Shown: positions 26,451-47,303, numbered from the stretch's first letter. The stretch: 64,000 bases of DNA from Nitrosopumilaceae archaeon (GCA_965203465.1 CBDBCR010000003.1:64001-128000); one strand, 5' to 3'. Numbers and translations are program-made. Notes: a model not told the origin generated them from the sequence alone.

Positions 26451-26451
26451 T

Positions 26452-28656: not shown

Positions 28657-28742
28657 GGGTTGCTTCGTCCGGGCCTCGCCAAGTGTGTATAAAAGGACTT
28701 CGTTTTTGGGCGGTTTTGCCAGAACCCCCCCCCCCCCCCCCC
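28657..28742 (-). promoter_or_regulatory. TATA promoter of module A with an upstream G18 homopolymer
   Basis: tataaaa at 28688-28694; gcttcgtccgggcctcgccaagtgtgtataaaagg is identical to the module B promoter; C18 at 28725-28742. Confidence 0.75.
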
Positions 28743-29232
28743 GAGGGGCCGATTTCGCGGTCCGGCGGCAAGAGCGCGGGTCTGGTACGGCCCGGATTGG
28801 CGGCGCGCCGGGCGGCGCCGGCGGGCTCGCGCGGCCGGGCGGCGCGGGCCGCCCCGTACCGGACGCGCCGGAAAGCACGTTCGAGCTCGGGTCGATGTGT
28901 TCGCGACCCGGTGGCGGCAAGGCACCTGCCGGAAACGCTCAAACGCTGGTCGATGTATTCTCCAGGACGGCCGCTCCCCCGGATCGCGCGGCCGAGCTGG
29001 CCGGGGACAGCGGTCTTGCGCGCGTTCCCGTCCCGGCAGGAAAGGCCGGACGCGGCGCCGCAAAATCCTGCCGGCATTCTTGCGCGCGACGCTGCCGCGC
29101 ACCGTCTCGGCGGGCGCCGCGCCGTGAGGCGCGCCGAGCGCGCGGCCGAACGACTGGAAGAGCCCGCGCTTTTGGCACTATGGCGCGGATCGCCTGCGGG
29201 CCGGCGCAGCCCCGCCCCGAACCGCGCCCGTG

Positions 29233-31806
29233 CTACGGCCGGCGCGACAGCCGACGGTACGCCAGAACCGCGGCGGCCGGCGAGCCCACAAGAGAGGCGT
29301 TGAACAGTATAACGAGCGAGCCGAGCAGCACAGTCTGGGCCTCCGATTCCGCCAGTTCCATTATTCCCAGAGACCAGAGCAGAGGCTGCAGGGATGCCTG
29401 GACTGCCTGCTTGAAGGCCGGGCTCGACCTTTCCAGGTCGGCGACGGCCGGCGAAAACGTATAGTAGAATTGGTTAAACCCCGACATGAACGCCGAGCCG
29501 GTACCGGTCGAGAGCGCGCCGTCGCGGACTTCGCGCAGCCGCTGCACCTGCTCGGCCATCTCGGTGCCGTACGCGGCCGTGGCTACCAGGCAGCCGCCTC
29601 CGTCGTCTGCCGGAACGGGCGTGCAGGTCCCGTCGTCGGCGAGGAACGTGCCGGGGCCGCAGACCGGATCTGCCGGCTCTGGCTCGTCGGTGATCGGCTC
29701 TTGGGTGACAGGTTCCTGCGTGATCGGAGCTGGCGGCTCGGGTGCCGGCGGCTCCGGGTCTTTGGGCGGCTCGGCGGCCGGCGGCTCTGCTGCCGGCGGC
29801 GCGGGCTGCTCGACCGGTTCTGCGCGCTCTGCCTGCTGCTGCTCGGGCTCTACCTCGAAGGGCTGGGAAGTCGCCCTCGGCTCTGGCGTATCGAACGTCC
29901 TGGTTCCCGTGCACGAATCGATGTTTACGGATTCGGTGTCCGACGCGATGGTGCGGTTGGAGACGAGCGTGGCCGAGATCCTGGCGAAAGATTCCGAAGA
30001 TCCGAACGGCGCGACAAACTCGGTGTACCCTCCGACTTCTCCTGACTGCGTCATGCGGACGACGCCGGCCACCGGCATGCGGACCGTCACGTCCAGAGAA
30101 CCGGACGACGGGCCGGCCACCACGTTGATCGTGTTGGCCTCGCAGTCCCACGAGGCAGACCGGATATAGACCGCGTCGGCGACGGCGCCCCCGTCTAGGG
30201 TCGTTCCAGAGACTCGGGCGCCGCCGCCCCCTCCGCCGCCGCCACCGCCTCCGCCTCCGCTGGATATCGTTCTCTGCGGCGGGGCCGTGACGTCTAGCGT
30301 GACGCGCTCGACGGGCGCATCGGCCGGCGCCGGCTGCGACGTGTACGAGACCGTCCAGTCGCCGTTTGCGTACCTGAGCGTCTCGTACGCGGCCGACGCC
30401 AGGTCGCCCCTCGCGTCGAGCCGCATGTCGCCCATCAGCCCGCGGTGGCCGAGGGCCGCGGCCGGTATCCCGTCGCCCAGGCCGCCCTCGCCGGTCACCG
30501 CCGCCGAGCCGGCGGCCGCGATGGCCTTGCCCAGTATCTGCACGGAATCGTAGGCGGCGTACGCCCCCGAATAGACGCGCCTTTCGTTGCCCAGTTCCGC
30601 CTGTATCGCCCTCTCCACGCCTTCGAACAGGGCGTGGCCGCGGTCCGGCGCGTCGTCTATCACCGTAAAGCGCTCCGAGACGAACTGCGAGACGGCCGGC
30701 GTCACGGTGGGCCAGAACTGCGCCCCGTACCAGTCCAGCGCCGAAAGAGCCGGGCTCGCGGCGGCGGCCGCGACTATGAGGTCGCCGTCGGCCTGGTACG
30801 AGGCGAGCAGCACCACGGTTCTGCCCGAGACCCCGGCCTCAAGGCCGGATGCCACCGACGACGCGTCCCCGATGGACGACGGATCGTAGGCTACCGGGAC
30901 CACGGCGGCCGGCGCGTTGCTCCGCACCGATTCGAGCAGGGACGTTCCCCACGGGTCGCCGGCGCGGTACGCCACTATCACGGTCTGCACGCCCTGCCCG
31001 GCGAGCCGGCCAGCGAAGAACTCGCCCTGGTTTGCCGTCGGCGAGAGGAACCTGAATACGTTGTCTTCCAGCGCCAGGGCAGACGAGACCGAGCAGCAGC
31101 TCAAGAGCATCATCCCGTTGTCGCCCGCGTACTCGCGCACGCTTGCAAGCTCTGACGAGCTGACCGGCCCCAGGACTATCTTGGTGCCGAGGGAGTTCAT
31201 TTCCTGCAGCTCCGAAAGGGCCGTCGACGGGGCGGACTGCGTGTCGCGCTTGTCCAGCTGGATTCTCCACTTTGAGTTGGTGTCGGCGAACCGCTTGTTC
31301 AGATCCTCTGCCCCCTTGTCGATCGCCGCCTCCACCGGGGCCCCGAGGCTGCCGAGCGAGCCGGTGCGCGAGATCAGCGCGCCGACCCGGACCGTCTCGG
31401 TCGCGACGGGGGCCGGCGCCGCCACGGTGACGGTAAAGTCCCGGTACAGCCCGCCCTGCCCCGCACCGGACGGGACCGCGTACAGCGCCAGGCTGTACGT
31501 GTCCCCGACATCCGCGGTAGACGGCACCGCCACGGTCAGCTCTACGTCCAGCGCGCCGCCGGCCGGAATCTGCGCGCGCTCCGGGTCGATCCGGATGCCC
31601 AGATCCTGCCTGCCCGTCACTTCGAAGGCGACGCCGGCCGCCTCGGCCGACGTGACCCTCAACAGGAGGGCGCGCTGCTCGCCGGCCGGCACCTGCACGT
31701 CCGTGCCGAACGAATAGAGCGGATCGTACCCCAGGGAGAACGCCTGCGGGACCGACGCGGAGGCTGCCGCCGCGATCAGCGCGGCGGCCAGAAGCGCGGG
31801 GGACAT
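29233..31806 (-). CDS. Paralogue (copy B, 857 aa) of the binding-protein/CFI-box-CTERM surface protein
   Basis: Same architecture as 23835-26450; about 730 bp at the 3' end is near-identical at DNA level (offset 5398 bp). Confidence 0.88.
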   Translation of the reverse strand: MSPALLAAALIAAAASASVPQAFSLGYDPLYSFGTDVQVPAGEQRALLLRVTSAEAAGVAFEVTGRQDLGIRIDPERAQIPAGGALDVELTVAVPSTADVGDTYSLALYAVPSGAGQGGLYRDFTVTVAAPAPVATETVRVGALISRTGSLGSLGAPVEAAIDKGAEDLNKRFADTNSKWRIQLDKRDTQSAPSTALSELQEMNSLGTKIVLGPVSSSELASVREYAGDNGMMLLSCCSVSSALALEDNVFRFLSPTANQGEFFAGRLAGQGVQTVIVAYRAGDPWGTSLLESVRSNAPAAVVPVAYDPSSIGDASSVASGLEAGVSGRTVVLLASYQADGDLIVAAAAASPALSALDWYGAQFWPTVTPAVSQFVSERFTVIDDAPDRGHALFEGVERAIQAELGNERRVYSGAYAAYDSVQILGKAIAAAGSAAVTGEGGLGDGIPAAALGHRGLMGDMRLDARGDLASAAYETLRYANGDWTVSYTSQPAPADAPVERVTLDVTAPPQRTISSGGGGGGGGGGGGGARVSGTTLDGGAVADAVYIRSASWDCEANTINVVAGPSSGSLDVTVRMPVAGVVRMTQSGEVGGYTEFVAPFGSSESFARISATLVSNRTIASDTESVNIDSCTGTRTFDTPEPRATSQPFEVEPEQQQAERAEPVEQPAPPAAEPPAAEPPKDPEPPAPEPPAPITQEPVTQEPITDEPEPADPVCGPGTFLADDGTCTPVPADDGGGCLVATAAYGTEMAEQVQRLREVRDGALSTGTGSAFMSGFNQFYYTFSPAVADLERSSPAFKQAVQASLQPLLWSLGIMELAESEAQTVLLGSLVILFNASLVGSPAAAVLAYRRLSRRP

Positions 31807-31810
31807 TTTG

Positions 31811-33822
31811 CTATCCGCAGCTGGCAAAGAACGATATCACCTGCGAGAGCGAATCGTCCCCTGTTGGCAGCAACCTGCCAGAGTGAACCACCTTGAATTC
31901 GACGCCCGAAGAGCCGCCCGGCGCCGGCAGGGCCGCGTCGAGCGTGGCAAACTGGCCCGGCGCCAAGTCCACGAACTCCCCGCCTATCTTTACCTGCGTG
32001 GTCAGGGTGCGGTACTCGTTGCCGGACGCGTCGAGCCACTGTCCGGCGCGCACCCGGAGCCCGTCGAACTCTTGGTTGCCCGCGTTGGTCACCGACTGCG
32101 TGACCGTGCCCGATTCGCCGCCGGTCACGATGTCGAACGAGATGGAAGAGCCCACCGCGGAGCACGCCTGCTGCTGCGGGTTGGCCGAGATGTCCGAGCT
32201 TATCAGCCGCAGGGTCGCGCGCTCCTGGTCGGCGTAGCTGGGCAGGTAGTTCACGCTGCCCTGCACGCGCGTGGCCAGCGAGGCGTACGGGCCGTTCTCG
32301 TCGCCCCAGTAGTTGTAGCCTGCCGTCATCGTGGTGGGCGAGAGGTTGATTATGTCGTACTCTGAGTTTGATATGAAACTGTTGTTGTACACGTCGATGG
32401 CGTGGTTTATCTCGCGCTCCGGCACCACGAACTGGGTGACTACCCGATCCAAGTAATCCTGGTGTATGCCGCAGCCGCCCTGGCAGACGAGCAGGCCCGT
32501 TGCGGCCGTCCCGTATGACGTTGTCGTATACCTTTGTGGCGCGGTTGTCCGCCGCCCAGATTAGAATCCCCGCGTCGCGCGCGGGCTTTGTCTGCGTGCT
32601 GTTGCTGTACACCAGCTCGCCGCCGACGTTGGCCACTTTGAGGTAGAACGGGCTGTTGCTTGCGCCCGTTATCTCGTTGTCGTAAATGTACACGACCTCG
32701 CCCGAATAGTCCCTTCCCGGCTGCGAGGCGTGCTGTATGCCCGACCCCGGCATGTTGGAGATGGTGTTTCCGCTCACGTGCGTGTTGCGCAGCAACGAGT
32801 CGCCCAAGTTTATTCCGCCCGACGTGGGGTTTCGTATGACGTTGTTCTGTATGAAGAGGCCGTCTGCCCTGGTGCCCGCGCCCCCTATGGCCGTCCCGAG
32901 GAAGGCGATTTTTTCGGTTCCTGCGTCCAGGGTCTCGTTCCGCCCGATGTCCACAAGGGTGTTGTTGGAGACTGTGACGTTCCTGAACAGGGATCCCTGC
33001 GGCGAGAACAGCGCTATGCCGCTCGTCTCGGTGTTTTCGAACGTGTTGCCCGTTATCGATATGTTTTCGCGCGGCGCCGCGTTGAAGTACCTGCCCACCG
33101 TGATCACCCCGCTGTTGGTCGGAACTAGGTTCAGCGTGTTGGACGGCTGCACCATGTCGCGGAATGTGACGCCCTCTATGGCCGCTCCGTTATGGTCTAT
33201 GATGAAATCGACGTTTCCGGTTATCGTGGCCGGCCCCTTGATCTTCATGCCACTGCCTATCACTATGGAGGCCTCGTTGTTTCCGTCAAAGGCGTACGTG
33301 CGGTCGGACAGCTTTAGGGTCGCGCCACTGGCCATGTTTGCCACCAAGGTCGGGGTGAGATCCTCGTTCGGAGTCATGACGCGCATCGGGCGCGTGGTGA
33401 CTACCACGTGATCCCTGTGCGATGCTCCCGACGCATACGTCGCGTCCAAGAAGAACGTGAGTTTTTCCCCGACCGCGTGCCTCGGAGGCGTGGTAAACGT
33501 CGTGACCAAGGCGTTGGGGTCGTCGAACGTGACTTGGTACCCGCGGTTAAGTTGGCTCCACGTCTGGCTGACGGGCAGCACGCTGGTCGACGTGCCGAAC
33601 GAGGCCGAGCCGTCGAGCGTGACCGTGTCGCCCCAGTCTACGACTTGGTCAGATCCGGCGTCGGTCGTATTCACAGCGTACGCGGGCGCCGCCGACGCTG
33701 CGGCCAGTGCCAGCGACAGGGAGGCTGCCAGCAGAACTACGCGCGAAGATTCCAACCTGCGCCCCCCCCCCCCACGAGCTGCCGCGGGTCGAGCGATCTT
33801 TGTTCTTGTTCGGCGTGCTCAT
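31811..33822 (-). pseudogene. Paralogue (copy B) of the beta-helix protein, interrupted by two +1 frameshifts (G12 tract at 33762-33773 and GGG at ~32497)
   Basis: ATG 33822 is homologous to ATG 28656 and has the same promoter. Removing one G gives SWGGGRRLESSRVVLL (copy A: SLGGRRKPLEPSRILA). Removing one G at ~32497 gives NGLLVCQGGCGIHQD (copy A: NGVLICQGGCGVHED). Real mutations and assembly indels are both possible. Confidence 0.8.
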
Positions 33823-34005: not shown

Positions 34006-34939
34006 CTACTCGGCGGCGCACCGGATCCGGTTCAGCGCGCACACGTTCCACGCTATGGCGAGCAGCAGGCCGAACCTCTCCTGCGTCTCTTTTTTCCTGT
34101 ACCTGCACAGCAGGCGGTGGTTGTCGCTCCCCTCCGCGCCGAATATCCCATCGATCATCTTGCGATCCTCGTGGCGCACCGGATCGAACATCTCGGCGGC
34201 CCTGCGCCTGAACCGCTTGCCGGCGTTGCGCCTGTTGCCGCCGTTCTCCCTGCTCTTTCTCTGATCGATGTTGGGGCGCATGCCCATGCCGAAGACGGCC
34301 TCGCAGTTCCGGTCCGAGTCGTATCCCTTGTCGGCGTGCAGCCACCAGCCGACGAAGCTGCGCCCCAGTTTTTTCGATTTTTCGAGAAGCGGCCGCAGCA
34401 TATCGGTGTCGGCCGCGCTGCTCGGCGTCATGGCGCATGCGAGGATCACCTGCAGCCCGACCGCCGCGAAAACGTGCCATTTTAGGTACGATTTTGCGCG
34501 CACGACTGTCTCTTTGCCGGTCTTTTTGTTCAGCCTGACGCTGTCTTCGTACCTGTCAGTTTCGGATCCGGTGCTGTCCGCCGTCGAATCGTGCTTGTCG
34601 ACTCCGACTTGTTTCAGGCACGCCTCGGCGGTCAGGGCCACCATTTTTTCGAGCCACTCCGCGTCGAGATCTCTGTGCGCCCTCGAGACGGTCGAATGAT
34701 CCGGGACGCGCCCGCCCAGATCCAGTTCCCACCACTCTACCATGTTCTCGGTTTTGCGGGACGAGAGGTTGAACAAGTTCATCAAGATGCACACGATGGC
34801 CATTTCGGCCAGAGTACACCCTCGGCCGCCCGCGTCCGCTCTTGCGTGCCGGCTCGGACGGCGGGTTATCCCTCACCAGATCCTTGATGTATCCAATAGA
34901 GTCTATGCGTAAACGCGCCGGTTGAGTTTTTCTAGGCAC
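34006..34939 (-). pseudogene. DDE transposase, frameshifted near 34810
   Basis: N-terminal ...GRGRPRVYS is in one frame; AEMAIVCIL...VPDHSTVSRA...DSTG...KWH...LHADKGYDS...RKMIDGIFG is in another. Confidence 0.8.
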
Positions 34940-35244: not shown

Positions 35245-35610
35245 ATGCAGAAAGCGCAGCCTCCCGAGTTTGCCAACACAATGGAGAGCATAATGGACAC
35301 CCCCGCCGAGGAGAGCATGAAAAAGGCCAGATCCGCAGAATACTTCGAGGACTGGAAAAAGGTGGCCGGCCGGAGAATCCACCTGATATTCGCCTCGCTT
35401 CCGATAGACGGGCCTGCCATACCCGACGAGATGAGGGAAGAAACCGAGGATCTGGTAATAAGGATCACGTGGCAGCACGCCTGCGAGTACATGACCGACG
35501 AGGAAAAGATCGCGGCCGGCCGTGTCAACATCAGGGCCATGAAAGAGTACGCGTGGGCGCTGGCCAGAAAGGCGGCGGCAGAAGAGTGGAAACCGGCAGC
35601 TCCTAAATAA
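35245..35610 (+). CDS. Hypothetical helical protein (121 aa)
   Basis: TTTATA at 35215-35220, 25 nt upstream; natural protein composition; overlaps the 3' end of the convergent ORF. Confidence 0.65.
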   Translation: MQKAQPPEFANTMESIMDTPAEESMKKARSAEYFEDWKKVAGRRIHLIFASLPIDGPAIPDEMREETEDLVIRITWQHACEYMTDEEKIAAGRVNIRAMKEYAWALARKAAAEEWKPAAPK

Positions 35611-36373
35611 TGCTCACCTTTACCACGCCCCGGAGCGATTCAAGCAGGTCGTAATATTTCCGCGGATCGGGCGTCGAGTCGAGCACATGGCTTTCCACGC
35701 GAATGCGGGTGCCGCCGGGCACGCGGGTGCCGTCCTCCAGCCTGCATTCGGTCTCGTTTGCTTTGGCGAGGTGCTTTCTGCTGTCGATCCTCTCTTCTGC
35801 GGACGAGACCGGGCAGGGCAAGGCCGTGTATACGGCAGTCCTGAGCTTGCCGCGTACGACATCATCAACGGGTACCGCCATTCGCACCGGGCGCTCGAGG
35901 GCGTATCCGTTAGTCCAGAGACTGAACAGCCTGCATCCGCGACGCCCCTTGCCGGGCACCGTCCTGCTTTCGAACGTCCCACCCAAGTAGCTTTCCAGCT
36001 CCACCAAGTCCATCCACCGGTACAGCGTTGTGGCTCTGGAGGCGCGCTCGTCCAAGGCCGAGTCTAATTCGCGCGCCAGGCCCTCCATCAGGATGGTTCC
36101 AAGATACGCGCCGGGATCGAAAGCCTCGAGCCGATCCAAGTATATACAGTCGGCGCGGCTCCAGTCCCCCGCGCCGACTGCCCGTTTGTACGCCCGCGAT
36201 TCCCAGGTTCCGCGGCCAAGGATCCGGTACGGGTTTGCCTCCAGCGTCTCCGCCCTTTTGGCTGCCAGTCGGGCCGCGCAGAAAAACCCTCCCGCGTTCA
36301 GCCGGGCAAACTCTCGGCGCGCCCAGCCCAAGACCCGCGGATCCAGCTAGTGGCCCGGGCATATTGCCGCCAT
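35603..36373 (-). CDS. Hypothetical protein with ADP-ribosyltransferase-like R-S-ExE motif spacing; in-frame TAG at codon 9 from the promoter-proximal ATG
   Basis: TLYRWMD...RLFSLW...ANETECRL. ATG 36373 follows a TATA-like TTTTTATC (36402-36395). TAG at 36349-36347; the frame is open from TTG 36331. Confidence 0.55.
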
Positions 36374-38410: not shown

Positions 38411-38827
38411 GTGCCTTATCAGGAACACAATCCAGACCGTGCCGTGGAGATAGGCATGGCCTCCATGGAGGGGGCGGCCTACTCGGACATGATGGAGTCC
38501 ATAGGCAGCGACGCCACAAAGTCCACGTACCGGAGCAACCTGGCCGCGTTCATGGCGGCGGTGCCCGACGGCGTCTTTGAAAAATACGCCGGGATCCGGC
38601 CAAAGTCGCGCGGCATAAAGGACATGCCCGAGGCGTTCGTGGGCCTCGCCAGGTCCAACCCGGACGCGGCCAAGGCGGCCGTGCGCAGCTACGTAAAGGG
38701 CCTCAAGGAGACGGTCGGAAAGGGCAAGCTGAGCCCCAACACGGTCCCCAACAAGATAAAGCCCGTAAAGGCGCTGCCGGCCGAGCGGCGCAGGGCGCAG
38801 ATCCTGCTCGACGTGCTTTTCGGGTAG
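38411..38827 (+). pseudogene. Truncated tyrosine integrase (N-terminal core-binding part only)
   Basis: AYSDMMESIGSDATKSTYRSNL...FVGLARSNPD...YVKGLKE...KLSPNTVPNKIKPVKAL resembles thaumarchaeal integrase N-termini; no catalytic R-HxxR-Y domain follows. Confidence 0.6.
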
Positions 38828-39149: not shown

Positions 39150-39179
39150 TAACAAGAGTTTTATACGACAGGCTTGTTA
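39150..39179 (+). promoter_or_regulatory. TATA box flanked by a 7-bp inverted repeat (possible operator)
   Basis: taacaag-agttttatacgacagg-cttgtta directly before ATG 39181. Confidence 0.45.
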
Positions 39180-39180
39180 T

Positions 39181-40335
39181 ATGGGCGTGGAGATCATTGT
39201 AGGGGCGCCGGTGACCGGCGAAAACCTTCACGGAAGGGAGGACGAACTCGACGAGTTGTGGTCCAGAATCAAAATCAACAGCATTCTGCTCTCTTCGCCG
39301 CGCAGGTTTGGCAAGACCAGCCTAGTCAAGGAAATGGAGCGCGCGCCGCGCGACGGATTCGAAGTCGTGTATTTGGACGTAGAGGGCATCGACAGCGTAC
39401 AGGAGTTTGTGTCGCGTCTTGCAGAAGCCCTGCCAAAGCCAGCCCAGCGGACACTGCTACGCAGGTTTGCAAAAAAATTGAGGGAGAACGTGGAAGAGAT
39501 CGAACTGTCTCATCTACGAATGAAACTAAGAGAGAGCACAAAAGAGGACTGCATGAGGGACGGGGAAGATCTGTTCGACATGCTCCAAGACGCGGAAAAA
39601 CTCCACATAATCGTGGTCGACGAGCTTCCCAGCTTTCTGTTAAATTTGGAATCTGCCGGTGTCCAGAGCCAATCCATAGGGATGGTTCTCAGGTGGTTGC
39701 GGCAAATGCGACAGGCACACGATGCAAGGTTCGTAGTGTGTGGTTCGATCGGGATAGACAACATACTGCGGCGTCACGGGTTGTTTAACACGGTCAACGA
39801 TCTAGAGAGGATAACCGTATCGCCGTTTGGACACGACACTGCTTCGCGCATGATAGAACGCCTGCTTGACAAAGCGGACATCGAATACGAGCCGAATCAC
39901 ACACAAAAGATTCTTGGCAAAATCGGAGTGCCGTCGCCCCCCTATTTCCTTCAGATAATGTTACGCGAGATCATCAAAATGACAGGCGCAAAAAAAAGAC
40001 TGTCGGAAGATGTCATAGACAAATCGTATCAGAGAGTCCTAGGCGACGCCGGAAAGGGGTATTTTGAATGGTATTACGACCGGCTCAAAACCGAATTCCC
40101 TCCGGATCTGTTACACGCCGTAGTGAGCATGCTGGATTACTTGGCCGAGCGCGAGTCAAGCACAAAATCCGATCTGAGCGGCGTGTTCTTTGACGCGCTG
40201 AAAAAGAAAGACAGCGAGATCTTTCTGGACGCGGTGAGGGCCCTGGAGAGCGGGTTTTACATAGCAAAAGACAACGGCTATTCGTTCCGCGTCAAAGTTC
40301 TGCGCGACTGGTGGGCAGAGAGGCGCGCCAGTTGA
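39181..40335 (+). CDS. Archaeal-ATPase/STAND-like P-loop NTPase with C-terminal winged helix (384 aa)
   Basis: GREDEL, Walker A SPRRFGKTS, Walker B IIVVDE, CGS, PPYFLQ, C-terminal LRDWW. Confidence 0.88.
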   Translation: MGVEIIVGAPVTGENLHGREDELDELWSRIKINSILLSSPRRFGKTSLVKEMERAPRDGFEVVYLDVEGIDSVQEFVSRLAEALPKPAQRTLLRRFAKKLRENVEEIELSHLRMKLRESTKEDCMRDGEDLFDMLQDAEKLHIIVVDELPSFLLNLESAGVQSQSIGMVLRWLRQMRQAHDARFVVCGSIGIDNILRRHGLFNTVNDLERITVSPFGHDTASRMIERLLDKADIEYEPNHTQKILGKIGVPSPPYFLQIMLREIIKMTGAKKRLSEDVIDKSYQRVLGDAGKGYFEWYYDRLKTEFPPDLLHAVVSMLDYLAERESSTKSDLSGVFFDALKKKDSEIFLDAVRALESGFYIAKDNGYSFRVKVLRDWWAERRAS

Positions 40336-42530
40336 CGTCCTTGCTAAAGTTCACCCCGGAGGCGATGCCCGGCGCCGAGATCGAAGCTCTGCACGCGGGG
40401 CGCGCAGGCATTATCGACTCCGCGGTGGAAAGGATCCAGAGCCTCATCGCGTCGGGCGGCACCATGCACGTGATGCTCGTCGGCCGGCGCGGCTCCGGCA
40501 AGACACACACGCTGCAGATGATAAGGCACGGGCTAGGCGACAGGATCGTCCCGGCGGTCCTCGCGCAGGAAGAGTATTCGGTCTACACCGTCGACGGGTT
40601 TTTCGCCCGCGTGCTGGAATCCATAGGCGAGGGGTACGACGGGCCCGAAGTGACGTACCGCGCAAGGGACGTGCTGAAGAGGCTGCGGCAAGGGGGCAGG
40701 CCGGTGGTGGTGTTTGCCGAAAACCTCCAGGCGCTGTTCGCGCAGATGGAGCCGGATCTGGGCGAGCTTCGCGCCGTGATGCAGGAAGACGAAAGTTTCT
40801 TCATAGCCGGATCCGCGCTGGCGCCGTTTGTCCAGGTCACCTCGATGTCGGCGCCGTTTTACAATTTTTTCGAGATCAACAGGCTCGACGGGCTCGACCC
40901 GGCCGAGATCGGGGAGCTTGTCGGGAGGCGCTCGGGCCCCGACGTGACGGCGCCCGTCGGCGGGCTCAGCCCGGAGGGGCTGCGCGCCCTGACCGGCGGC
41001 AACCCGAGGCTCGTCCACGCGCTCTGCGACGAGGCGGACAGGAACCCGGGCGCGGATCTGGAGGACTGCATGGCCGCGATGCTGGACGGGATGACGCCCG
41101 AGTACCGGAGCGTGGCCGAGGCGATGCCGGCCGAGGTGCGCAAGATCTTCGACGCGATGGCCCTCGCCGACGGGCCGCTCACGCCCACCGAGATCGCCCT
41201 CAAGATGGGCACGAAGAACACCATAACGGCCGCCCAGATAAACAGGATGAAGAACGGCGGGCTCGTAGAGCCGGTGAAGTTCGGGAGAAAGAAAGAGACG
41301 CGGTACCAGATAACCGAGTGGATGTACCCCATGTGGAGGGAGTTCAGGCGCGGCGGAAGATCGGCGAGACTCCGGGCGTTCGCCGACTTGCTCAAGGCGC
41401 TGCATTCCGAAGAAAGGGGCGGGCCGGCAGACCCCATGCTGGCCATGGCGCGCGCCTCCGGAGTTCTCGCGGCCGAAAAGCACGGCGCGCCGGACTGGGG
41501 GCCGCGGCTGCCGGCCGAAGGCTGGAAAAAGATCGCAAGGCGGCAAAAGAGCGGGGCGCTGCGGCTGTGCGCCGAGATCGCGGCGGCCGACGCCAAGCTG
41601 CGCGCCTGCGGCCGGGACGGGCGCGAGTTTGCAGACTATGCGCTACGCGACAAGGCGAGGCATCTCGAAGGGGCCGTCGCCGCCGCGCGCATCCCCCGCA
41701 CCAAAGAGGCGCATTCGCTGCTTGGCCTGGCCGCCCGCACGGCTTCCGAACTCGGCATGTGGCAGGCGGCCGAAAAAGCCGTCGGCGCGGCGCGCGCGTG
41801 CGCCAAGGCGCACTGCCACGGATGCGCCGTCCTGGGCGCGCTGGCCAGCGCGCAGACGGGCAGGTACGAAAGGGCCGCAGCCGCCCTCGGCTCGGCGCTG
41901 CGCGGCCCCGCGAGGGGGGCCCGCGGGGAATCCGAGCTCTTTGCGTACAAGATCCACATGCACGCCAGGATGGGGGAGCGCGTGGACGTGGGGGCCGACT
42001 CCGCGCGCATGCTCGAGCGCGGCGCGGCGAGCCTGCCCGACGCCATGTTCGCCCATTTCGAGATGGCAAGGTACGACGAGGCGCTGGAGATCATGCGGCA
42101 GCACGCCCCCCGCCTGGGGCGGCTTGCGCCGGGCGAGCGCAGGGCCGCAGCCGCCGGCGCCCTGACCAAGACGGCCATCCACGTCATGCGCAGGCGCCCC
42201 GACGAGTACGAGGCCAAGGCCATGTCGGCGTGCCTCGGGACGCTAGAGCCGTTCGTCTGGCCTGGCGCGTTCGGGCCCGCCGCGGCGATCCTGGCCGGCT
42301 GCGGCATCGATCCGATGCGCGCCGCCGCGAGCGTGTTTTCCGGCGCGTTCGGGGACGGGCGGATGGGCGCCTTCGAGGTGATAAGATGCGCCGCCCGATA
42401 CGCGGACACGCAGGACGCCTCCCTGTTCGAGAGGCTCGGCCAGGAGCAGAGGATCCTGGCGTTTTCCGTGGTGCGCAAGATCGCCCCCTCTGCGGAGATT
42501 CCCCGGCACGTGCTCGATTCGGCCCCGTGA
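40332..42530 (+). CDS. STAND-like NTPase + winged-HTH + TPR-like helical C-terminus (732 aa)
   Basis: TTG start overlaps the upstream TGA (TTGA); Walker A GRRGSGKT; atypical Walker B VVFAEN; PFYNFF; TGGNPR; wHTH LTPTEIA...QINRMKNGGLV; TPR-like TGRYERAAAAL and MARYDEALEI. Confidence 0.85.
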   Translation: MTSLLKFTPEAMPGAEIEALHAGRAGIIDSAVERIQSLIASGGTMHVMLVGRRGSGKTHTLQMIRHGLGDRIVPAVLAQEEYSVYTVDGFFARVLESIGEGYDGPEVTYRARDVLKRLRQGGRPVVVFAENLQALFAQMEPDLGELRAVMQEDESFFIAGSALAPFVQVTSMSAPFYNFFEINRLDGLDPAEIGELVGRRSGPDVTAPVGGLSPEGLRALTGGNPRLVHALCDEADRNPGADLEDCMAAMLDGMTPEYRSVAEAMPAEVRKIFDAMALADGPLTPTEIALKMGTKNTITAAQINRMKNGGLVEPVKFGRKKETRYQITEWMYPMWREFRRGGRSARLRAFADLLKALHSEERGGPADPMLAMARASGVLAAEKHGAPDWGPRLPAEGWKKIARRQKSGALRLCAEIAAADAKLRACGRDGREFADYALRDKARHLEGAVAAARIPRTKEAHSLLGLAARTASELGMWQAAEKAVGAARACAKAHCHGCAVLGALASAQTGRYERAAAALGSALRGPARGARGESELFAYKIHMHARMGERVDVGADSARMLERGAASLPDAMFAHFEMARYDEALEIMRQHAPRLGRLAPGERRAAAAGALTKTAIHVMRRRPDEYEAKAMSACLGTLEPFVWPGAFGPAAAILAGCGIDPMRAAASVFSGAFGDGRMGAFEVIRCAARYADTQDASLFERLGQEQRILAFSVVRKIAPSAEIPRHVLDSAP

Positions 42531-42640
42531 CGGCCGGCTCAACACCCGTTTGGTTCGGGCCCGCGCGCGGGCCCGCGGGCGTACGCCCGTAAAGATCCGG
42601 CAGGATCCGGGTTAAATGCCGCCGGCCCCACAGTGGCGCC

Positions 42641-43003
42641 ATGGCGATGCAGGCCCTGCAGGGCATGGACGGCGAGAGGGCCGAAAGGGCGCTCCGGATG
42701 CTCTACTCTTCCAGGAAGAACGAGTTCAAGGACCTGGCAGAGACGGTCATGCACGTCGATCCGGTCGCGAGCAGGATAGCCGGCTGGGAAAAGTTCGTGC
42801 TCAACTTTTGCATGGACGTCAGTTCCCAGTTTGGCGCCTGGAGCGGGAGGGGCGCGCTGGTCCAAAACTCTGACCTAAAGGCTCTCACGCTGCTGCGGCA
42901 GCTGGCCGGCGGCAAGACGTCGATGAACAGCATGACGCGCCAGCTCAACACGGCCTACGACCTGGCCGAAGAGTTCAAGGTCATATACAGCAGGATAGAC
43001 TAG
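42641..43003 (+). CDS. Conserved hypothetical protein (120 aa)
   Basis: Coding-like composition; GTTAAA upstream at ~42611. Confidence 0.7.
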   Translation: MAMQALQGMDGERAERALRMLYSSRKNEFKDLAETVMHVDPVASRIAGWEKFVLNFCMDVSSQFGAWSGRGALVQNSDLKALTLLRQLAGGKTSMNSMTRQLNTAYDLAEEFKVIYSRID

Positions 43004-44835
43004 CTGCCCGACAGGTAGTACCCCGAGCCGAATATGTAGCCGCCGCTCATCGACAGCCACGACCTTTTGAGCTGCTCTGTGTCGGTCGCCGGGTTCATGA
43101 ACGTGTACTCGGCCCAGGCGCCGCCGTCCCTCACGTCCTGCAGGATCTGCGCGTAGGGCCTGTCCGCCTGCATCAAGGGGGTCGAGACGGCGCCGACCCT
43201 GTCGGGGTACGCGCCGTGCGCGAGCACCATCGGCTCGTCGCTGCCGTCCAGCACGAAGACGTACGGCTTTGACGGATCGTACCCTTCGGCCGACGCGGTT
43301 ATCGAATCCAGGGCCGAATCGCCGTGCGCCTGGAACAGGGCTATCGCCTCGGAGACGGCGCGCTTTACGGCCTGCGACTCGCTTTCCGTATAGTAGCCGG
43401 ATCCGAATATGTAGCCATCGCGCATGACCATCCACGACTTTTTGGACTGCTCCAGGCCGGTGGCCGGGTTCTCAAAGACGTACTCTGCCCAGGCGCCCTC
43501 GCCGCCGCGCAGCTCGTCGAGTATCTGGGACCACGGCCTGTCGGCCTCGAGCAGCGGCCCGGCCTCGGTGCCTACCCTGTCGGGGAACGCGCCGTGCGCC
43601 AGTATCGTCGGGCGGTCGTCGAGCACGAAGACGTACGGCGCCGAGGCGTCGTAGTCGCGGGCAGAGGCCGTGATGGCCGCGAGTGCCGCCTCTCCGGACT
43701 CGTCGTACATGGCCAGGGCCTCCGAGACCGCGTCCGTGGCGGCCGCCTCCCATCCGGCCGAGCCCACATAGTATCCGGAGCCGAAGACGTAATCGCCGCG
43801 CAGCACCATCCACGACTTTTTGGACTGCTCGCTGCCCGTGGCCGGGTTGGGAAAGACGTACTCTACCCAGGTGCTGCCCTCGGAGTTGAGATCCTCCATG
43901 ATTTCAGAGTAGGGGCGCTCGGCCGTAGTCAGGCTCCTGGACACGGCCCCGACCCTCTCGGGCAGAGCGCCGTGCGCCGCCACCACGGGCGGCTCTAGCA
44001 GCTCGAGCACGAATACGTACGGCTCTGAAGAATCGTAATTTTCGGCCGAAGCCGTGATTGCGTCGAGGGCCGCATCTCCGGACTCGTCGTACATGGCGAG
44101 CGCCTCCGAGACTGCAGACTTTACGGCCTGCGCGCCAGTCTCCGCATAGTATCCCGAGCCGAAGACGTAATCGGCCCTCATGACCAGCCACGACTTTTTG
44201 GACTGCTCGCTGCCCGTGGCCGGGTTCTCGAACGTGTATTCCACCCACGCGCCCTCCGACGAGCTTATCTCCTCCAGTATCTGCGCGTACGGCCTGTCCG
44301 CCTGCAGCAGCGGCGTGGCCTCGGTGCCTACCCTCTCTGGCAGAGCGCCGTGGGCCAGGACCGTCGGGTTGGTGCCGCTGTCCAGCACAAAGACGTACGG
44401 CTCTGAAGAATCGTAATTTTTGGCCGAAGCCGTGATTGCGTCGAGGGCCGCATCTCCGGACTCGTCGTACATGGCGAGCGCCTCCGAGACTGCAGACTTT
44501 ACGGCCTCGGCACCAAAGCCCGGAGCGTCCTTTGCGTAATCTTTTGTCCGCTCGGCATCGCGCGGGTACGCCGCCGTCTCGGCAGGCGCCATCATCCCTG
44601 CCGGCGCCTCTACGGCCCAGCCCCTCTCGATCAGCGCCTTGCCGGTCCCGTCGCTTACGCACGCAGGCGCCATGTCGGCGGCCTTTAGGACCAAGACCAT
44701 GCCCTCTTGGCACCGTATCGGGGCGTCGGGATCCGCGGCGTACTGGGCGAGCGGCGACATCGGGCCGGCCGCGGCCTCGCCGCCGTACGCGGCGCCCGCC
44801 GCCAAGACTGCAAGTACAGCAAGCCGAGCCAGCAT
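43000..44835 (-). CDS. Secreted protein with four tandem single-Cache domains
   Basis: Signal peptide; thaumarchaeal SPLAQ...C.EG.VLV.K.....ACV...LIERGW motif; 4x (AV..A.A.YD..G..A...I...YVFVL...AHGA.P...W.EY.F.NPATG.EQ.K.SW......FGSGYY); TTATATAA at 44857. Confidence 0.88.
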   Translation of the reverse strand: MLARLAVLAVLAAGAAYGGEAAAGPMSPLAQYAADPDAPIRCQEGMVLVLKAADMAPACVSDGTGKALIERGWAVEAPAGMMAPAETAAYPRDAERTKDYAKDAPGFGAEAVKSAVSEALAMYDESGDAALDAITASAKNYDSSEPYVFVLDSGTNPTVLAHGALPERVGTEATPLLQADRPYAQILEEISSSEGAWVEYTFENPATGSEQSKKSWLVMRADYVFGSGYYAETGAQAVKSAVSEALAMYDESGDAALDAITASAENYDSSEPYVFVLELLEPPVVAAHGALPERVGAVSRSLTTAERPYSEIMEDLNSEGSTWVEYVFPNPATGSEQSKKSWMVLRGDYVFGSGYYVGSAGWEAAATDAVSEALAMYDESGEAALAAITASARDYDASAPYVFVLDDRPTILAHGAFPDRVGTEAGPLLEADRPWSQILDELRGGEGAWAEYVFENPATGLEQSKKSWMVMRDGYIFGSGYYTESESQAVKRAVSEAIALFQAHGDSALDSITASAEGYDPSKPYVFVLDGSDEPMVLAHGAYPDRVGAVSTPLMQADRPYAQILQDVRDGGAWAEYTFMNPATDTEQLKRSWLSMSGGYIFGSGYYLSGS

Positions 44836-46270: not shown

Positions 46271-46939
46271 GTGGCGAAAAAAGCGTCGGTCAGATCGCTG
46301 AGGGCCGCCCAAAAGAGGGCCGCCGGGGATCACCGCCGCGCGATGTCCGCGCTCGCCTCGGCCGATCGCCGCATCGCGCAGGGGAGGGAAAAGATCGGCG
46401 AGGCCGACGGCCGCCTGTACCACGCGCGCGCCCGCATCGAGAGCGTCGAGAGGCTGATCGCCCGCGCCAAGGAAAAGATGGCGCGCGCGAAAAAGGACGC
46501 GCGCGGGGGCGAGGCCGAGGAGATCGGCGGCGAGATGAGGATGCGCAGAAAGATGCTCAGAAAGATGGGCCGCGAAATGGCCCTCTTGGAGGACGAGCGC
46601 TCGCGCGCCGCAAAGTCGATCAAAAATGCGAGATCGGCCAGGCCGTCCAAGAAAGAGGCGGCAAAGAGCGCCGCGGCCGCGGCGGAAAAGGCGTCCCGCC
46701 TCTTGGAGCGCGCCGAGGCCGCCGCCCGGAAGGCGGCCCGCAAAAAGCCGGCGGCTACCAGAAAGCCGGCGCGCAAAAAGTCCACAAAGTCCGTCCGCGG
46801 TAAGGCCGCCGCGCGCAAGGCGGCGCCCGGGAAACCGGCGCGCAAAAAGTCCGTCCGCGGCAAGGCGGGCCGCGCGGGGGCGAAAGCGCGCGCGGGGGCG
46901 CGCGGGAAGACTGCAAAAAAGCGCCGTGTTGCGGCCTAG
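46271..46939 (+). CDS. Lys/Ala/Arg-rich basic protein (coiled coil plus histone-H1-like tail)
   Basis: Tail with repeated KPARKKS(T/V)/KAAARK; CCTTAAC about 25 nt upstream. Confidence 0.6.
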   Translation: MAKKASVRSLRAAQKRAAGDHRRAMSALASADRRIAQGREKIGEADGRLYHARARIESVERLIARAKEKMARAKKDARGGEAEEIGGEMRMRRKMLRKMGREMALLEDERSRAAKSIKNARSARPSKKEAAKSAAAAAEKASRLLERAEAAARKAARKKPAATRKPARKKSTKSVRGKAAARKAAPGKPARKKSVRGKAGRAGAKARAGARGKTAKKRRVAA

Positions 46940-47238
46940 GATTCTTTTGTCAGGTTTTCCATCTTGCCGTACTTGCCCTTGCTCAGCTGCACCTCTCCCT
47001 TGAAGGTGTTGGTGTAGCCGTTGGTGATCTTTACCCTGTCGTTCTCGGAGTAGTTGTTGGCGTCCTCGGCCCACAGCGTGAGTTTTATCTCGCCGCTGTC
47101 GTCCTTTAGGTACGCGTCGCACACGTCGATGGTGCCGCCTGACTTTGTGTTCACGTTGCGGACCTCGCCTTTCTTGGTGATGTTCCCCTCGACGTCGATC
47201 CCGCTGCGCATGTTCTTGGCGTCTGCTATGCTGACCAT
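46936..47238 (-). CDS. ssb: Single-OB-fold single-stranded DNA-binding protein
   Basis: VRNVNTKSGG...LKDDSGEIKLTLW...VKITNGYTNTFKGEVQL..GKYG; ttataa at 47262. Confidence 0.88.
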   Translation of the reverse strand: MVSIADAKNMRSGIDVEGNITKKGEVRNVNTKSGGTIDVCDAYLKDDSGEIKLTLWAEDANNYSENDRVKITNGYTNTFKGEVQLSKGKYGKMENLTKES

Positions 47239-47303
47239 GCGCACGGCCCCCGTTCCGGTGATTATAAACCTATTCTGGAGGGCCGGAGATCCGCGGCGGG
47301 CGC

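Follow-up and report, generated by a model that had tools for sequence, protein, structure and literature searches.

The window analysed here, a stretch of 64,000 nt from Nitrosopumilaceae archaeon GCA_965203465.1 (CBDBCR010000003.1:64001-128000), carries at 39150..42530 two P-loop ATPase genes, here called P1 and P2, together with a promoter-like stretch; a truncated integrase-like gene lies upstream and a small ORF downstream. Coordinates below are counted from the first nucleotide of the window.

38411..38827, + strand: truncated copy of a multi-copy integrase-like gene of 420–440 aa, its first ~124 codons homologous
39150..39179, + strand: promoter-like stretch, with TTTATA (39160-39165) inside the perfect 7-nt inverted repeat TAACAAG-N16-CTTGTTA
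39181..40335, + strand: P1, STAND-like ATPase consisting of a NOD only (NBD, helical domain and winged helix), with ATG 39181 or GTG 39187 as start
39298-39321, + strand: P1 Walker A, PRRFGKTS
39607-39630, + strand: P1 Walker B (VVDELP region)
40332..41366, + strand: P2 NOD, residues 1–345
40479-40505, + strand: P2 Walker A, GRRGSGKTH
40707-40724, + strand: P2 atypical Walker B, VVFAEN (E130 N131)
from 40992, + strand: P2 TGGNPRL
41184-41312, + strand: P2 winged helix, residues 285–327, then an arm helix in which W335 and R339 are conserved
41367..41513, + strand: P2 linker, residues 346–394, mostly predicted disordered (pLDDT <50 at 361–392)
41514..42356, + strand: P2 sensor, residues 395–675, an all-alpha TPR-type solenoid and the fastest-diverging part of P2
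42357..42530, + strand: conserved P2 C-terminal cap, residues 676–732, with the stop codon
42641..43003, + strand: downstream ORF of 120 aa, single-copy in its own genome

The two genes overlap at TTGA, as the first-pass annotation had it. The P1 stop codon TGA (40333-40335) lies inside this tetranucleotide and P2 starts with TTG at 40332, a start that fits because the closest P2 homologues are 732 aa long. For P1, GTG 39187 is the likelier start, since its homologues begin with MEIVVG. The greater AT-richness of the first gene was likewise confirmed, with a GC content of 52% (GC3 0.64) for P1 vs 66–73% (GC3 0.88) for P2. Among the contigs of four runs that were compared, a 3,694-nt contig from another study covers 39273-42966 with 14 differences, and a second variant of the P1 5' part is present in two runs (37 differences in 496 nt). 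Contig joints were considered as empty sites and set aside, the joint sides being just 20–56 nt long at 88% likeness. A long inverted repeat (I1, 38775-38815 / 43132-43172, 76% complementary) was rejected as an element boundary, being too weak for GC-rich DNA.

TTTATA occurs only four times on the + strand of the 64-kb window, and here it lies 21–27 nt before the P1 start codons, so that the P1-P2 mRNA may be leaderless or nearly so. The inverted repeat described around this TATA box is present, but there are 190 7-nt repeats of this kind in the window, about 3 per kb, and it is therefore not beyond chance; it is not seen upstream of the decayed paralogue in the same genome. The integrase relic proposed next to the pair is in part substantiated: a truncated copy of a multi-copy gene does lie there, its residues 1–124 sharing 73–83% identity with the N-termini of five longer ORFs (326–556 aa) found by a search of its own genome. 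Homology to the full copies stops near 38781, and past ~38781–38783 the contigs of other runs continue with unlike sequence, as judged by eye against a full-length copy. Neither Pfam nor PHROGs, however, matched the relic, and Pfam did not match one full-length copy (432 aa). The R / HxxR / H...Y spacing that can be picked out by eye in the translation of the full-length copy resembles that of a tyrosine recombinase and may serve as a lead.

P1 is a bare ATPase of 384 aa with no sensor, and its AF2 model (pLDDT 85.9) comprises an NBD, a helical domain and a terminal winged helix. Its Walker motifs proved as intact as had been described: K45, D147 and E148 are invariant in 37/37 sequences, as is R19 of HGREDEL, which resembles the hhGRExE-like motif that precedes Walker A and B in STAND NTPases. 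The top PDB fold matches of P1 are 2qen (E 8e-12, TMq 0.68) and 2fna (E 4e-11, TMq 0.63), and further Foldseek matches include Orc1/Cdc6, CED-4, a wheat resistosome and MalT. The P1 family profile also reaches 2qen by sequence (E 9.5e-6), over the N-terminal part only. P1 scores 24.7 bits against Pfam PF01637 (ATPase_2), below the gathering cut-off of 33.2, and a precomputed match to this family is listed for many P1 homologues; P1 is a divergent relative of PF01637, whose structures are its best fold matches. The ESM Atlas returned only generic 'archaeal ATPase / AAA-like' clusters for P1, and PHROGs gave no match. The proteins behind 2qen (P. abyssi PABY2304) and 2fna (S. solfataricus SSO1545) have the same NBD-helical-winged-helix build as P1 and a similar size. 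We know of no function for either, and such PF01637-type 'archaeal ATPases' are presumably the MNS clade of STAND NTPases. This clade is named in the legend of Fig. 1 of PMC13581612. Many COG1672 proteins carry a DUF234 PD-(D/E)XK domain, according to PMC3424549, whereas P1 has none.

P2 extends the same core with a long repeat region. Its AF2 model (pLDDT 83.3) shows an all-alpha solenoid at residues 395–720, and its top fold matches are the STAND-TPR protein PH0952 (6mfv; Foldseek E 2e-7) and then Avs3, with further matches to Orc1/Cdc6, Apaf-1, CED-4 and NRC4. For both proteins, the folds matched bear out the initial STAND-like assignment. Walker A, FAEN, GGNP, the winged helix and the TPR-like region were all recovered as annotated; the Pfam TPR match fails for the P2 sequence itself and is obtained, with canonical TPR families, for 44/60 homologues (60 of 64 with full domain tables). 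In the P2 alignments, Walker A is invariant, R24 of (F)VGR is at least 90% conserved and Walker B takes the form hhhh(D/E)N. N131, G223, P225 and R226 are invariant in 36/36 sequences, and N131 is at least 90% conserved in further alignments of 25 and 75 sequences. A near-invariant Asn at the catalytic Walker B position suggests that the P2 NOD probably binds nucleotide and hydrolyses it poorly, although an Asn at this position need not abolish hydrolysis. The variability ascribed to the sensor region is evident in the homologues, where the NOD, sensor and cap show identities of, for instance, 70%, 38% and 56%, respectively, for P0056, and of 50%, 18% and 40% for P0067. The cap motif, of the ...EKLSPEVR... 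type, is recognisable by eye in about 58/64 complete P2 homologues. The P2 winged helix matches the MarR_2, HTH_24, LexA_DNA_bind and TrmB models in many homologues, and a single homologue (L075) adds a sigma-70 region-4 HTH. No enzymatic domain was found in P1, in P2 or in the domain tables of the P2 homologues (60 of 64 in full), and in 149 of the 150 best P2 representatives the NOD begins no later than residue 31, in agreement with the initial remark that no effector is visible. PHROGs gave two marginal matches for P2, and NCBIfam nothing near threshold for either protein.

Profile alignment of P1 with P2 by hhalign gave a probability of 97.4% (E 1e-11, 338 columns), with P1 D147-E148 opposite P2 E130-N131, and on this alignment the two are distant paralogues. 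At 77/80 genome loci the P1 homologue is immediately followed by a P2 homologue, at short or overlapping spacing; two of the three unpaired loci are at contig ends and one has a truncated P1. Metagenome loci, counted as relatives at ≤37% identity in an alignment-based scan, with relatives at 45–96% identity outside that count, are paired in 58/58 cases with at least 700 nt downstream (69/80 overall), and the metagenome scan with P1 alone returned no relative. Six strong P1 and six strong P2 matches in five genomes form six adjacent pairs, and 15 further genomes each have a single P2, which sits at the paired locus already known; across these 20 genomes, none of the 21 P2 copies is unpaired. 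The NODs also diverge together, the pairwise identities of P1 and those of the P2 NOD over 64 loci correlating at r=0.94 (r=0.79 for distant pairs). Pairing was obligate in every sample examined, which upholds the initial proposal of a coupled pair, and clustering of 592 neighbour ORFs of other loci yielded no third conserved gene.

The P2 NOD family comprises 3,535 clusters (50% identity) at E≤1e-30, and the hosts of the pair are both bacteria and archaea. Among 41 relatives, the pair occurs in its own genome only, which holds three copies, two of them decayed; 19/20 genomes carry one copy each. No match to the pair was found in 50,697 phage records, viral contigs gave one weak partial match, and 7/72,556 plasmids carry the pair. 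A few of the plasmid copies adjoin integrase or IS elements, and RefSeq calls the plasmid copies nothing more specific than 'ATP-binding protein' and 'tetratricopeptide repeat protein'. Most loci are without mobile-element genes nearby. The flanking genes are mostly housekeeping and partly syntenic within lineages, with PEPCK in Acidobacteria loci, QRPTase in Methanoculleus and CitG in Methanoperedens; MutS2 flanks the pair at three loci, and OapC is a neighbour at one, with no conserved origin-type context seen. The patchy spread, the decayed copies, the adjoining integrase-like relic and the anomalous composition of P1 suggest that the module moves horizontally.

The view that the pair belongs to no named defence system was borne out by PADLOC, which found no match for P1, only weak P-loop matches to mad8 (2.6e-5) and SngB and no Avs model for P2, and no match at 1e-10 for three P1 and three P2 homologues. 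The nSTAND1 and nSTAND6 models score 14–15 bits against P1 and P2 themselves (cut-offs about 27); several homologues score 27.1 bits or more with nSTAND1 (34.2 and 35.0, for example), and none exceeds about 35 bits with nSTAND5 (cut-off 34). With scores around the cut-offs, the pair is a borderline case that belongs to no described nSTAND family. No description of it was found in the literature text searched, and the supplementary tables of PMC13581612, a census of 589 clades, may well contain these families. An association with defence islands, whose absence had been set beforehand as refuting the defence proposal, was not detected: PADLOC-positive neighbours amounted to 16/138 vs 10/134 at control sites (taken from the same contigs at a distance of 30–120 kb, for 20 of the genomes; Fisher p=0.30), and to 12/138 vs 6/134 with generic models dropped (p=0.22), in a small and crude test that scanned 138 of 204 near neighbours. 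The case is a caution against reading 'STAND plus TPR' as antiviral defence, since the pair does not show the genomic signature that usually marks defence.

The tripartite core of the NOD and STAND fold matches are present in both proteins (AF2 models, Foldseek). Orc1/Cdc6 structures (the 2qby heterodimer on DNA, 1fnn, 1w5t, 2v1u) have an AAA+ module and, behind it, a winged helix in common with P1 and P2, at target-normalised TM-scores of 0.43–0.55, and since these scores are similar, STAND and Orc/Cdc6 are not told apart by the fold search on its own. The Cdc6/Orc models, however, stay below threshold for the pair (ORC-CDC6-like 20.4 vs 27 bits), no origin context accompanies it, and P2 has an arm, TPRs and a cap beyond the Orc1/Cdc6 build. 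P2 resembles PH0952 and MalT in the order of NOD, arm and TPR; its global TM-score with PH0952 is low (0.19–0.22), so only parts are alike. MalT is a single protein with a LuxR-type DNA-binding effector domain. PH0952 is likewise a single protein, with a dedicated effector domain of ArsR-like type for binding DNA, and is a predicted transcription factor, as given in PMC6468293; P2, in contrast, has no dedicated effector domain and always occurs with P1. The Avs/AVAST proteins (Avs3, PDB 8dgc) also combine a STAND NOD with a fast-diverging TPR-like sensor and a patchy distribution across prokaryotes. In PMC13581612, Avs7-21 are described as antiviral STANDs, and Avs proteins as single chains with an N-terminal effector whose deletion abolished cell death. 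P1 and P2 lack such a fused effector, and the pair differs further in having no PADLOC Avs match and no enrichment of defence context. The plant sensor/helper NLRs and NAIP-NLRC4 likewise consist of two linked, related NODs, one with repeats and the other simpler and canonical. Eukaryotic helper NLRs carry a CC, TIR or CARD signalling domain, whereas P1 is a NOD only, and the likeness is one of analogy with no orthology implied.

Innate immunity in every domain of life relies centrally on STAND/NLR proteins, and to our knowledge the prokaryotic STANDs investigated to date combine sensor, switch and effector in one chain. We consider it about an even chance (probability roughly 0.5) that the locus represents a large, self-contained, horizontally moving module that encodes a two-subunit STAND (NLR-like) switch, with P2 as sensor and P1 as catalytic partner. 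Assigning the sensor role to P2 and the helper role to P1 is a reasonable inference. Both proteins would be translated, by coupling, from one message; the TPR solenoid of P2 would bind a trigger, releasing autoinhibition, and ATP-bound P2 could then nucleate an ATP-dependent co-assembly with P1, modelled on NAIP-NLRC4, plant sensor/helper NLRs or heteromeric Orc/Cdc6. Since neither P1, P2 nor a conserved neighbour supplies an enzymatic effector, the output would have to be the assembly itself, with an array of winged helices that binds DNA or a host factor, or else the turnover of ATP, as candidates. We know of no citable precedent mechanism for an effector-less STAND, which counts against the two-subunit switch. 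Such a module, splitting the switch over two paralogous NODs without an effector, raises the questions of how a STAND assembly signals without enzymatic output and whether the sensor/helper division of labour arose in prokaryotes.

As to its role, conflict or anti-mobile-element immunity is a tentative assignment with somewhat less than even odds, against which stand the lack of defence enrichment, the housekeeping flanks, the mostly single copy per genome and the scarcity in phage, viral and plasmid records; a non-immune regulatory role is rather unlikely, and so, to a like degree, is any other. Doubtful as a whole is the fullest version, in which the pair would be the founding obligately heteromeric, effector-less prokaryotic NLR-like machine, a hydrolysis-impaired P2 nucleating active P1 with assembly as output, a counterpart of NAIP-NLRC4 or the plant pairs found in at least 12 phyla of bacteria and archaea and in thousands of clusters, and engaged in conflict with mobile elements though outside defence islands.

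The matches of the P2 winged helix to classical DNA-binding models and the presence of Orc1/Cdc6 chains, including the DNA-bound 2qby, among the top fold matches of both proteins would also suit a non-immune regulator, whose winged helices bind DNA and whose TPRs sense a small-molecule or protein ligand that changes transcription, possibly with the inverted repeat over the TATA box as a site of autoregulation. The predicted transcription factor PH0952 as the best fold match of P2, the additional HTH of L075 and the housekeeping context with one copy per genome and no defence enrichment point the same way, as does the 2026 census, where 391/589 STAND clades are not classed as defence-associated (PMC13581612). 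However, the winged helix is part of the STAND nucleotide switch, so that a wHTH match does not show DNA binding, and the pair has neither a separate DNA-binding effector domain as in MalT and PH0952 nor a conserved target operon beside it. Patchy horizontal spread with decayed extra copies would be unusual for a housekeeping regulator, and the inverted repeat is within chance and not seen upstream of the decayed paralogue; we regard this explanation as unlikely.

Far less probable is that the pair serves to replicate or maintain an integrated mobile element, for which it would act as an Orc1/Cdc6-like initiator or loader and which would have brought the integrase-like gene. The fold likeness, the relic directly upstream, the anomalous composition and the plasmid copies adjoining integrase or IS elements have to be set against the near absence from phage, viral and plasmid records, the loci mostly free of mobile-element genes and the lack of any Cdc6/Orc family model at threshold; neither a variable TPR sensor nor a Walker B that looks inactive is characteristic of an initiator. 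That two unrelated ATPase genes merely lie side by side, for which the generic AAA family matches in Pfam might speak, is refuted for practical purposes by the pairing counts, with the strictly kept adjacency and orientation in bacteria and archaea alike, the overlap of the stop and start codons and the correlated divergence all against it. For the two-subunit switch, P1-P2 fusions were sought among longer proteins, and neither of the two matches is a fusion, which weighs against the switch only weakly, as the search scored 8,000 candidates. One of these matches (P0093) joins a ParA-like part, TPRs and a P1-like part, and the other (P0094) an unknown N-terminus and a P1-like part.

Two ORFs in the same direction occupy 39181-42530 of the window, which is G000:C3:64001-128000 in an archaeal genome (G000) of 2.26 Mb and four contigs:

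39181 (ATG) or 39187 (GTG) to 40335, (+): P1, 384 aa counted from the ATG, a STAND-like ATPase consisting of a NOD only (nucleotide-binding domain, NBD, plus helical domain and winged helix)
40332 (TTG) to 42530, (+): P2, 732 aa, a NOD followed by a TPR-type sensor and a C-terminal cap
39160, (+): TTTATA, 21-27 nt upstream of the P1 starts and one of four on the window's + strand

GTG 39187 is the likelier start of P1 because its homologues begin MEIVVG, and the length of P2 from TTG 40332 equals the 732 aa of the closest homologues. The first-pass annotation, which proposed a paired NLR-like sensor/helper for antiviral defence or signalling, had described a TTGA overlap between the genes, and the P1 stop TGA (40333-40335) does overlap the P2 start at 40332. 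P1 stands out in composition as the more AT-rich gene, as had been remarked, with a GC of 0.52 and a GC3 of 0.64 compared with 0.66-0.73 and 0.88 for P2. The inverted repeat said to bracket the TATA box exists as a perfect 7-nt repeat, but it carries no statistical weight, since such repeats occur about three times per kb in the window. The closest named relatives of the locus among the matches listed from the genome collection are Nitrosopumilus MAGs, and several studies contributed sponge and marine metagenome runs that contain near-identical DNA.

The proposed obligate pairing of the two genes was borne out across genomes. A scan with the P1 alignment, taking one genome per species, recovered at least 449 relatives, and in 77 of the best 80 loci a P2 homologue (residues ~1-360) lies directly downstream of P1. 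It begins 18-245 nt (median 41) past the end of the P1 alignment, a spacing that counts alignment ends, not gene ends, the called ORFs abutting or overlapping. Of the three unpaired loci, one has a truncated P1, and in the other two the contig ends within the P1 gene. In an independent metagenome set, a P2 homologue was found in all 58 loci where 700 nt or more were available for it (69 of 80 overall). Both profiles run on five whole genomes gave six strong P2-NOD and six strong P1 matches that form six adjacent pairs, one genome holding two, and in each of 15 further genomes the only P2-NOD copy is the one at the locus already known to be paired. The pairwise identities of P1 and P2-NOD are correlated across 64 loci (r=0.94; r=0.79 for pairs below 50% identity), which is therefore read as co-inheritance, not co-evolution, because shared descent alone yields such a correlation. 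No third conserved gene emerged from the clustering of 592 neighbour ORFs. Two pair copies occur in some genomes, namely at L087 (P2 matches 9181-10305 and 13811-14923, the copies at most 5 kb apart) and at G042:C1:809967-812281.

Pfam returned only generic or below-threshold matches for both proteins: AAA_22 (27.4 bits), ATPase_2/PF01637 (24.7 bits, cut-off 33.2) and weak nSTAND1 and nSTAND6 for P1, and AAA_22 with weak ORC-CDC6-like and MarR_2 matches for P2. The predicted model of P1 (pLDDT 85.9) comprises an NBD, a helical domain and a winged helix, and its best fold matches are the PF01637 structures 2qen and 2fna, followed by Orc1/Cdc6, CED-4, a wheat resistosome and MalT. That of P2 (pLDDT 83.3) places the same three domains within residues 1-327; an arm helix comes next, then a disordered linker (361-392), and residues 395-720 form an all-alpha solenoid. 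The best fold matches of P2 are the STAND-TPR protein PH0952 (6mfv), Avs3, Orc1/Cdc6, Apaf-1 and CED-4. P1 is homologous end to end with the first ~340 residues of P2 in profile-profile comparison (probability 97.4%, E 1e-11, 338 columns). The canonical ATPase motifs read in P1 are invariant, K45, D147 and E148 being kept in 37/37 sequences. The Walker B of P2 had been called atypical, and the counterpart of the catalytic Glu is indeed Asn131, kept in 36/36 sequences and conserved to at least 90% within the wider sets; the acidic residue before it is Glu in the window's clade and Asp in roughly half of the family.

The P2-NOD profile matched 8,527, 4,880 and 3,535 representatives at E 1e-3, 1e-10 and 1e-30, respectively; in 149 of the best 150, which are 314-1,319 aa long, the NOD begins by residue 31. 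Domains were scanned in 64 complete-looking P2 homologues (12 of 76 left out), with counts from 60. Canonical TPR families match 44 of these 60, in agreement with the TPR-like region noted at first, and a Methanomicrobiales group of ~520-575 aa gave no TPR match. No enzymatic domain appears in the domain tables listed (60 of the 64 complete homologues), in line with the reported lack of a visible effector. The expectation of variable P2 C-termini held for the repeat region, which diverges far faster than the NOD; the last ~50 residues are better conserved. Two example homologues share 70% and 50% identity in the NOD versus 38% and 18% in the repeat region, and 56% and 40% in the last ~50 residues; a C-terminal motif was seen by eye in about 58 of the 64 complete homologues, from bacteria and archaea. 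These comparisons give a family signature of conserved NOD, variable sensor and conserved cap. A 1,022-aa P2 homologue (L075:1764-4832) has a sigma-70 region-4 type HTH match at residues ~792-832, after the TPRs, the sole added DNA-binding domain seen in the family. Two rare longer relatives of P1 were also observed: in P0093 (991 aa) an N-terminal ParA/MinD-like P-loop and a run of TPRs precede the P1-like module (~605-991), and in P0094 (768 aa) an uncharacterised 400-aa N-terminus does so.

This anatomy fits a two-subunit STAND switch, for which we infer the following mechanism. The P2 repeats would sense a ligand, and P2 would hold nucleotide with little turnover because of the Asn at its catalytic position. 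Translational coupling may make P1 in step with P2, P1 supplying the canonical ATPase NOD. Ligand-bound P2 could then nucleate assembly with P1, by analogy with NAIP-NLRC4, plant sensor/helper pairs and heteromeric Orc/Cdc6. Since the proteins contain no enzyme domain, assembly as such would be the output.

P1 is distantly related to the PF01637/MNS-type archaeal ATPases, which are not known to have a function. COG1672 proteins are listed with a DUF234 nuclease domain (PMC3424549), which P1 lacks. Parts of P2 resemble STAND-TPR proteins of the PH0952/MalT type and of the Avs type, but P2 is without their effector domains (PMC6468293; PMC13581612). A 2026 census of prokaryotic STANDs deals with single proteins and distinguishes 589 clades, 198 of them defence-associated; its authors also screened for toxicity on co-expression with a phage gene library (PMC13581612). 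No description of a NOD + NOD-TPR pair was found in the literature searched, though the supplementary tables of that census may include these families.

Among 41 relatives searched, the pair occurs only in the window's genome; two same-genus genomes have weak (1e-5) partial matches. G000 carries two additional, decayed copies:

L169 (G000:C1:812000-828000), ~7090-9880: P1 with an internal deletion, then a P2-like gene
L170 (G000:C2:50000-64000), ~6820-7570: P1-like fragment with in-frame stops

The C1 P2-like gene shows 48% identity over residues 1-361 and a C-terminal match in a different frame, and GC falls locally to 0.49 around the C2 fragment. Upstream of the C1 copy, a GAGTATAT-type word recurs as short direct repeats. 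The segment at 38411-38827, upstream of P1, had been taken for an integrase relic. It retains ~124 codons from the start of a gene that has five longer copies in G000 (73-83% identity across residues 1 to 124; loci L212-L214):

G000:C3:403049-403420
G000:C1:670730-671101
G000:C3:331528-331899
G000:C3:930519-930890
G000:C3:987789-988160

It is a truncated copy of a multi-copy gene. One full copy of 432 aa has a tyrosine-recombinase-like motif spacing, read by eye, but no Pfam match; the copies may represent divergent integrases of mobile elements in G000. Contigs from other samples continue past ~38781-38783 into unlike sequence, which, compared by eye with the full-length copy, marks the truncation point. 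One contig from another study spans 39273-42966 with 14 differences, and the pair is therefore intact in other populations. The 5' part of P1 (39273-39768) exists in two co-existing versions in sequencing runs X5 and X6, with 1-3 differences in 481 nt versus 37 in 496 nt (92.5% identical). Taken with the low GC3 of the gene, this is a hint that P1 alleles have been replaced independently of P2.

The pair is real and widespread, and its antiviral reading is an unproven candidate. As the first-pass annotation had stated, no named system matches: PADLOC gave none for P1 and only weak P-loop matches for P2 (mad8 2.6e-5, SngB), and at 1e-10 three homologues of each protein had no match either. NCBIfam and PHROGs offered nothing useful for either protein, and RefSeq labels the plasmid copies only 'ATP-binding protein' and 'tetratricopeptide repeat protein'. 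The suggested defence-island association failed to appear: PADLOC (1e-10) matched 16/138 neighbours versus 10/134 control-site genes (Fisher p=0.30), or 12/138 versus 6/134 (p=0.22) with generic models dropped on both sides. The neighbours were 138 of 204 near ones (the first 150, loci L009-L068, less 12 large proteins), and the controls lay 30-120 kb off on the same contigs of 20 of these genomes, with the same choice and gene calling. This small context test shows no island signal.

The pair was found in none of 50,697 phage records and in 7 of 72,556 plasmids, and viral contigs gave a single match, weak and partial; WYL, DUF262, DUF3800 and GIY-YIG genes surround two plasmid copies, and one of the plasmids with the pair belongs to Clostridium estertheticum. 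The patchy horizontal distribution, the decayed copies and the rapid evolution of the sensor lean towards a role in conflict, and the missing effector, the housekeeping context and the one-copy pattern lean towards a regulatory one. For the 143 neighbours lying up to three genes from the pair, Pfam matches are mostly housekeeping, and about 14 of the 143 resemble defence, toxin-antitoxin or mobile genes. Several neighbours show lineage-level synteny, namely PEPCK in Acidobacteria loci, QRPTase in Methanoculleus, CitG in Methanoperedens, and MutS2 in three loci.

Other features of the window are as follows:

23835-26468, (-): 877-aa protein, periplasmic-binding/ANF-receptor domains
26452-28920, (-): 822-aa right-handed beta-helix protein, flanked by the 877-aa protein and its large paralogue
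29233-31827, (-): 864-aa paralogue of the 877-aa protein, same domains
34006-34803, (-): DDE_Tnp_1 transposase ORF, 265 aa (Pfam 27.9 bits), ~4.4 kb upstream of the pair
35245-35610 and 35603-36331: two ORFs without family match, adjoining the transposase ORF
43000-44835, (-): 611-aa protein, signal-peptide-like N-terminus and four ~115-aa tandem repeats matching dCache_2 and sCache_2
46271-46939, (+): 222-aa ORF, very basic, Ala/Lys/Arg-rich, no Pfam match
46936-47244, (-): 102-aa OB-fold (RPA-like) ORF, adjoining the basic ORF

The 611-aa Cache protein ends 3 nt inside a 120-aa ORF downstream of the pair.
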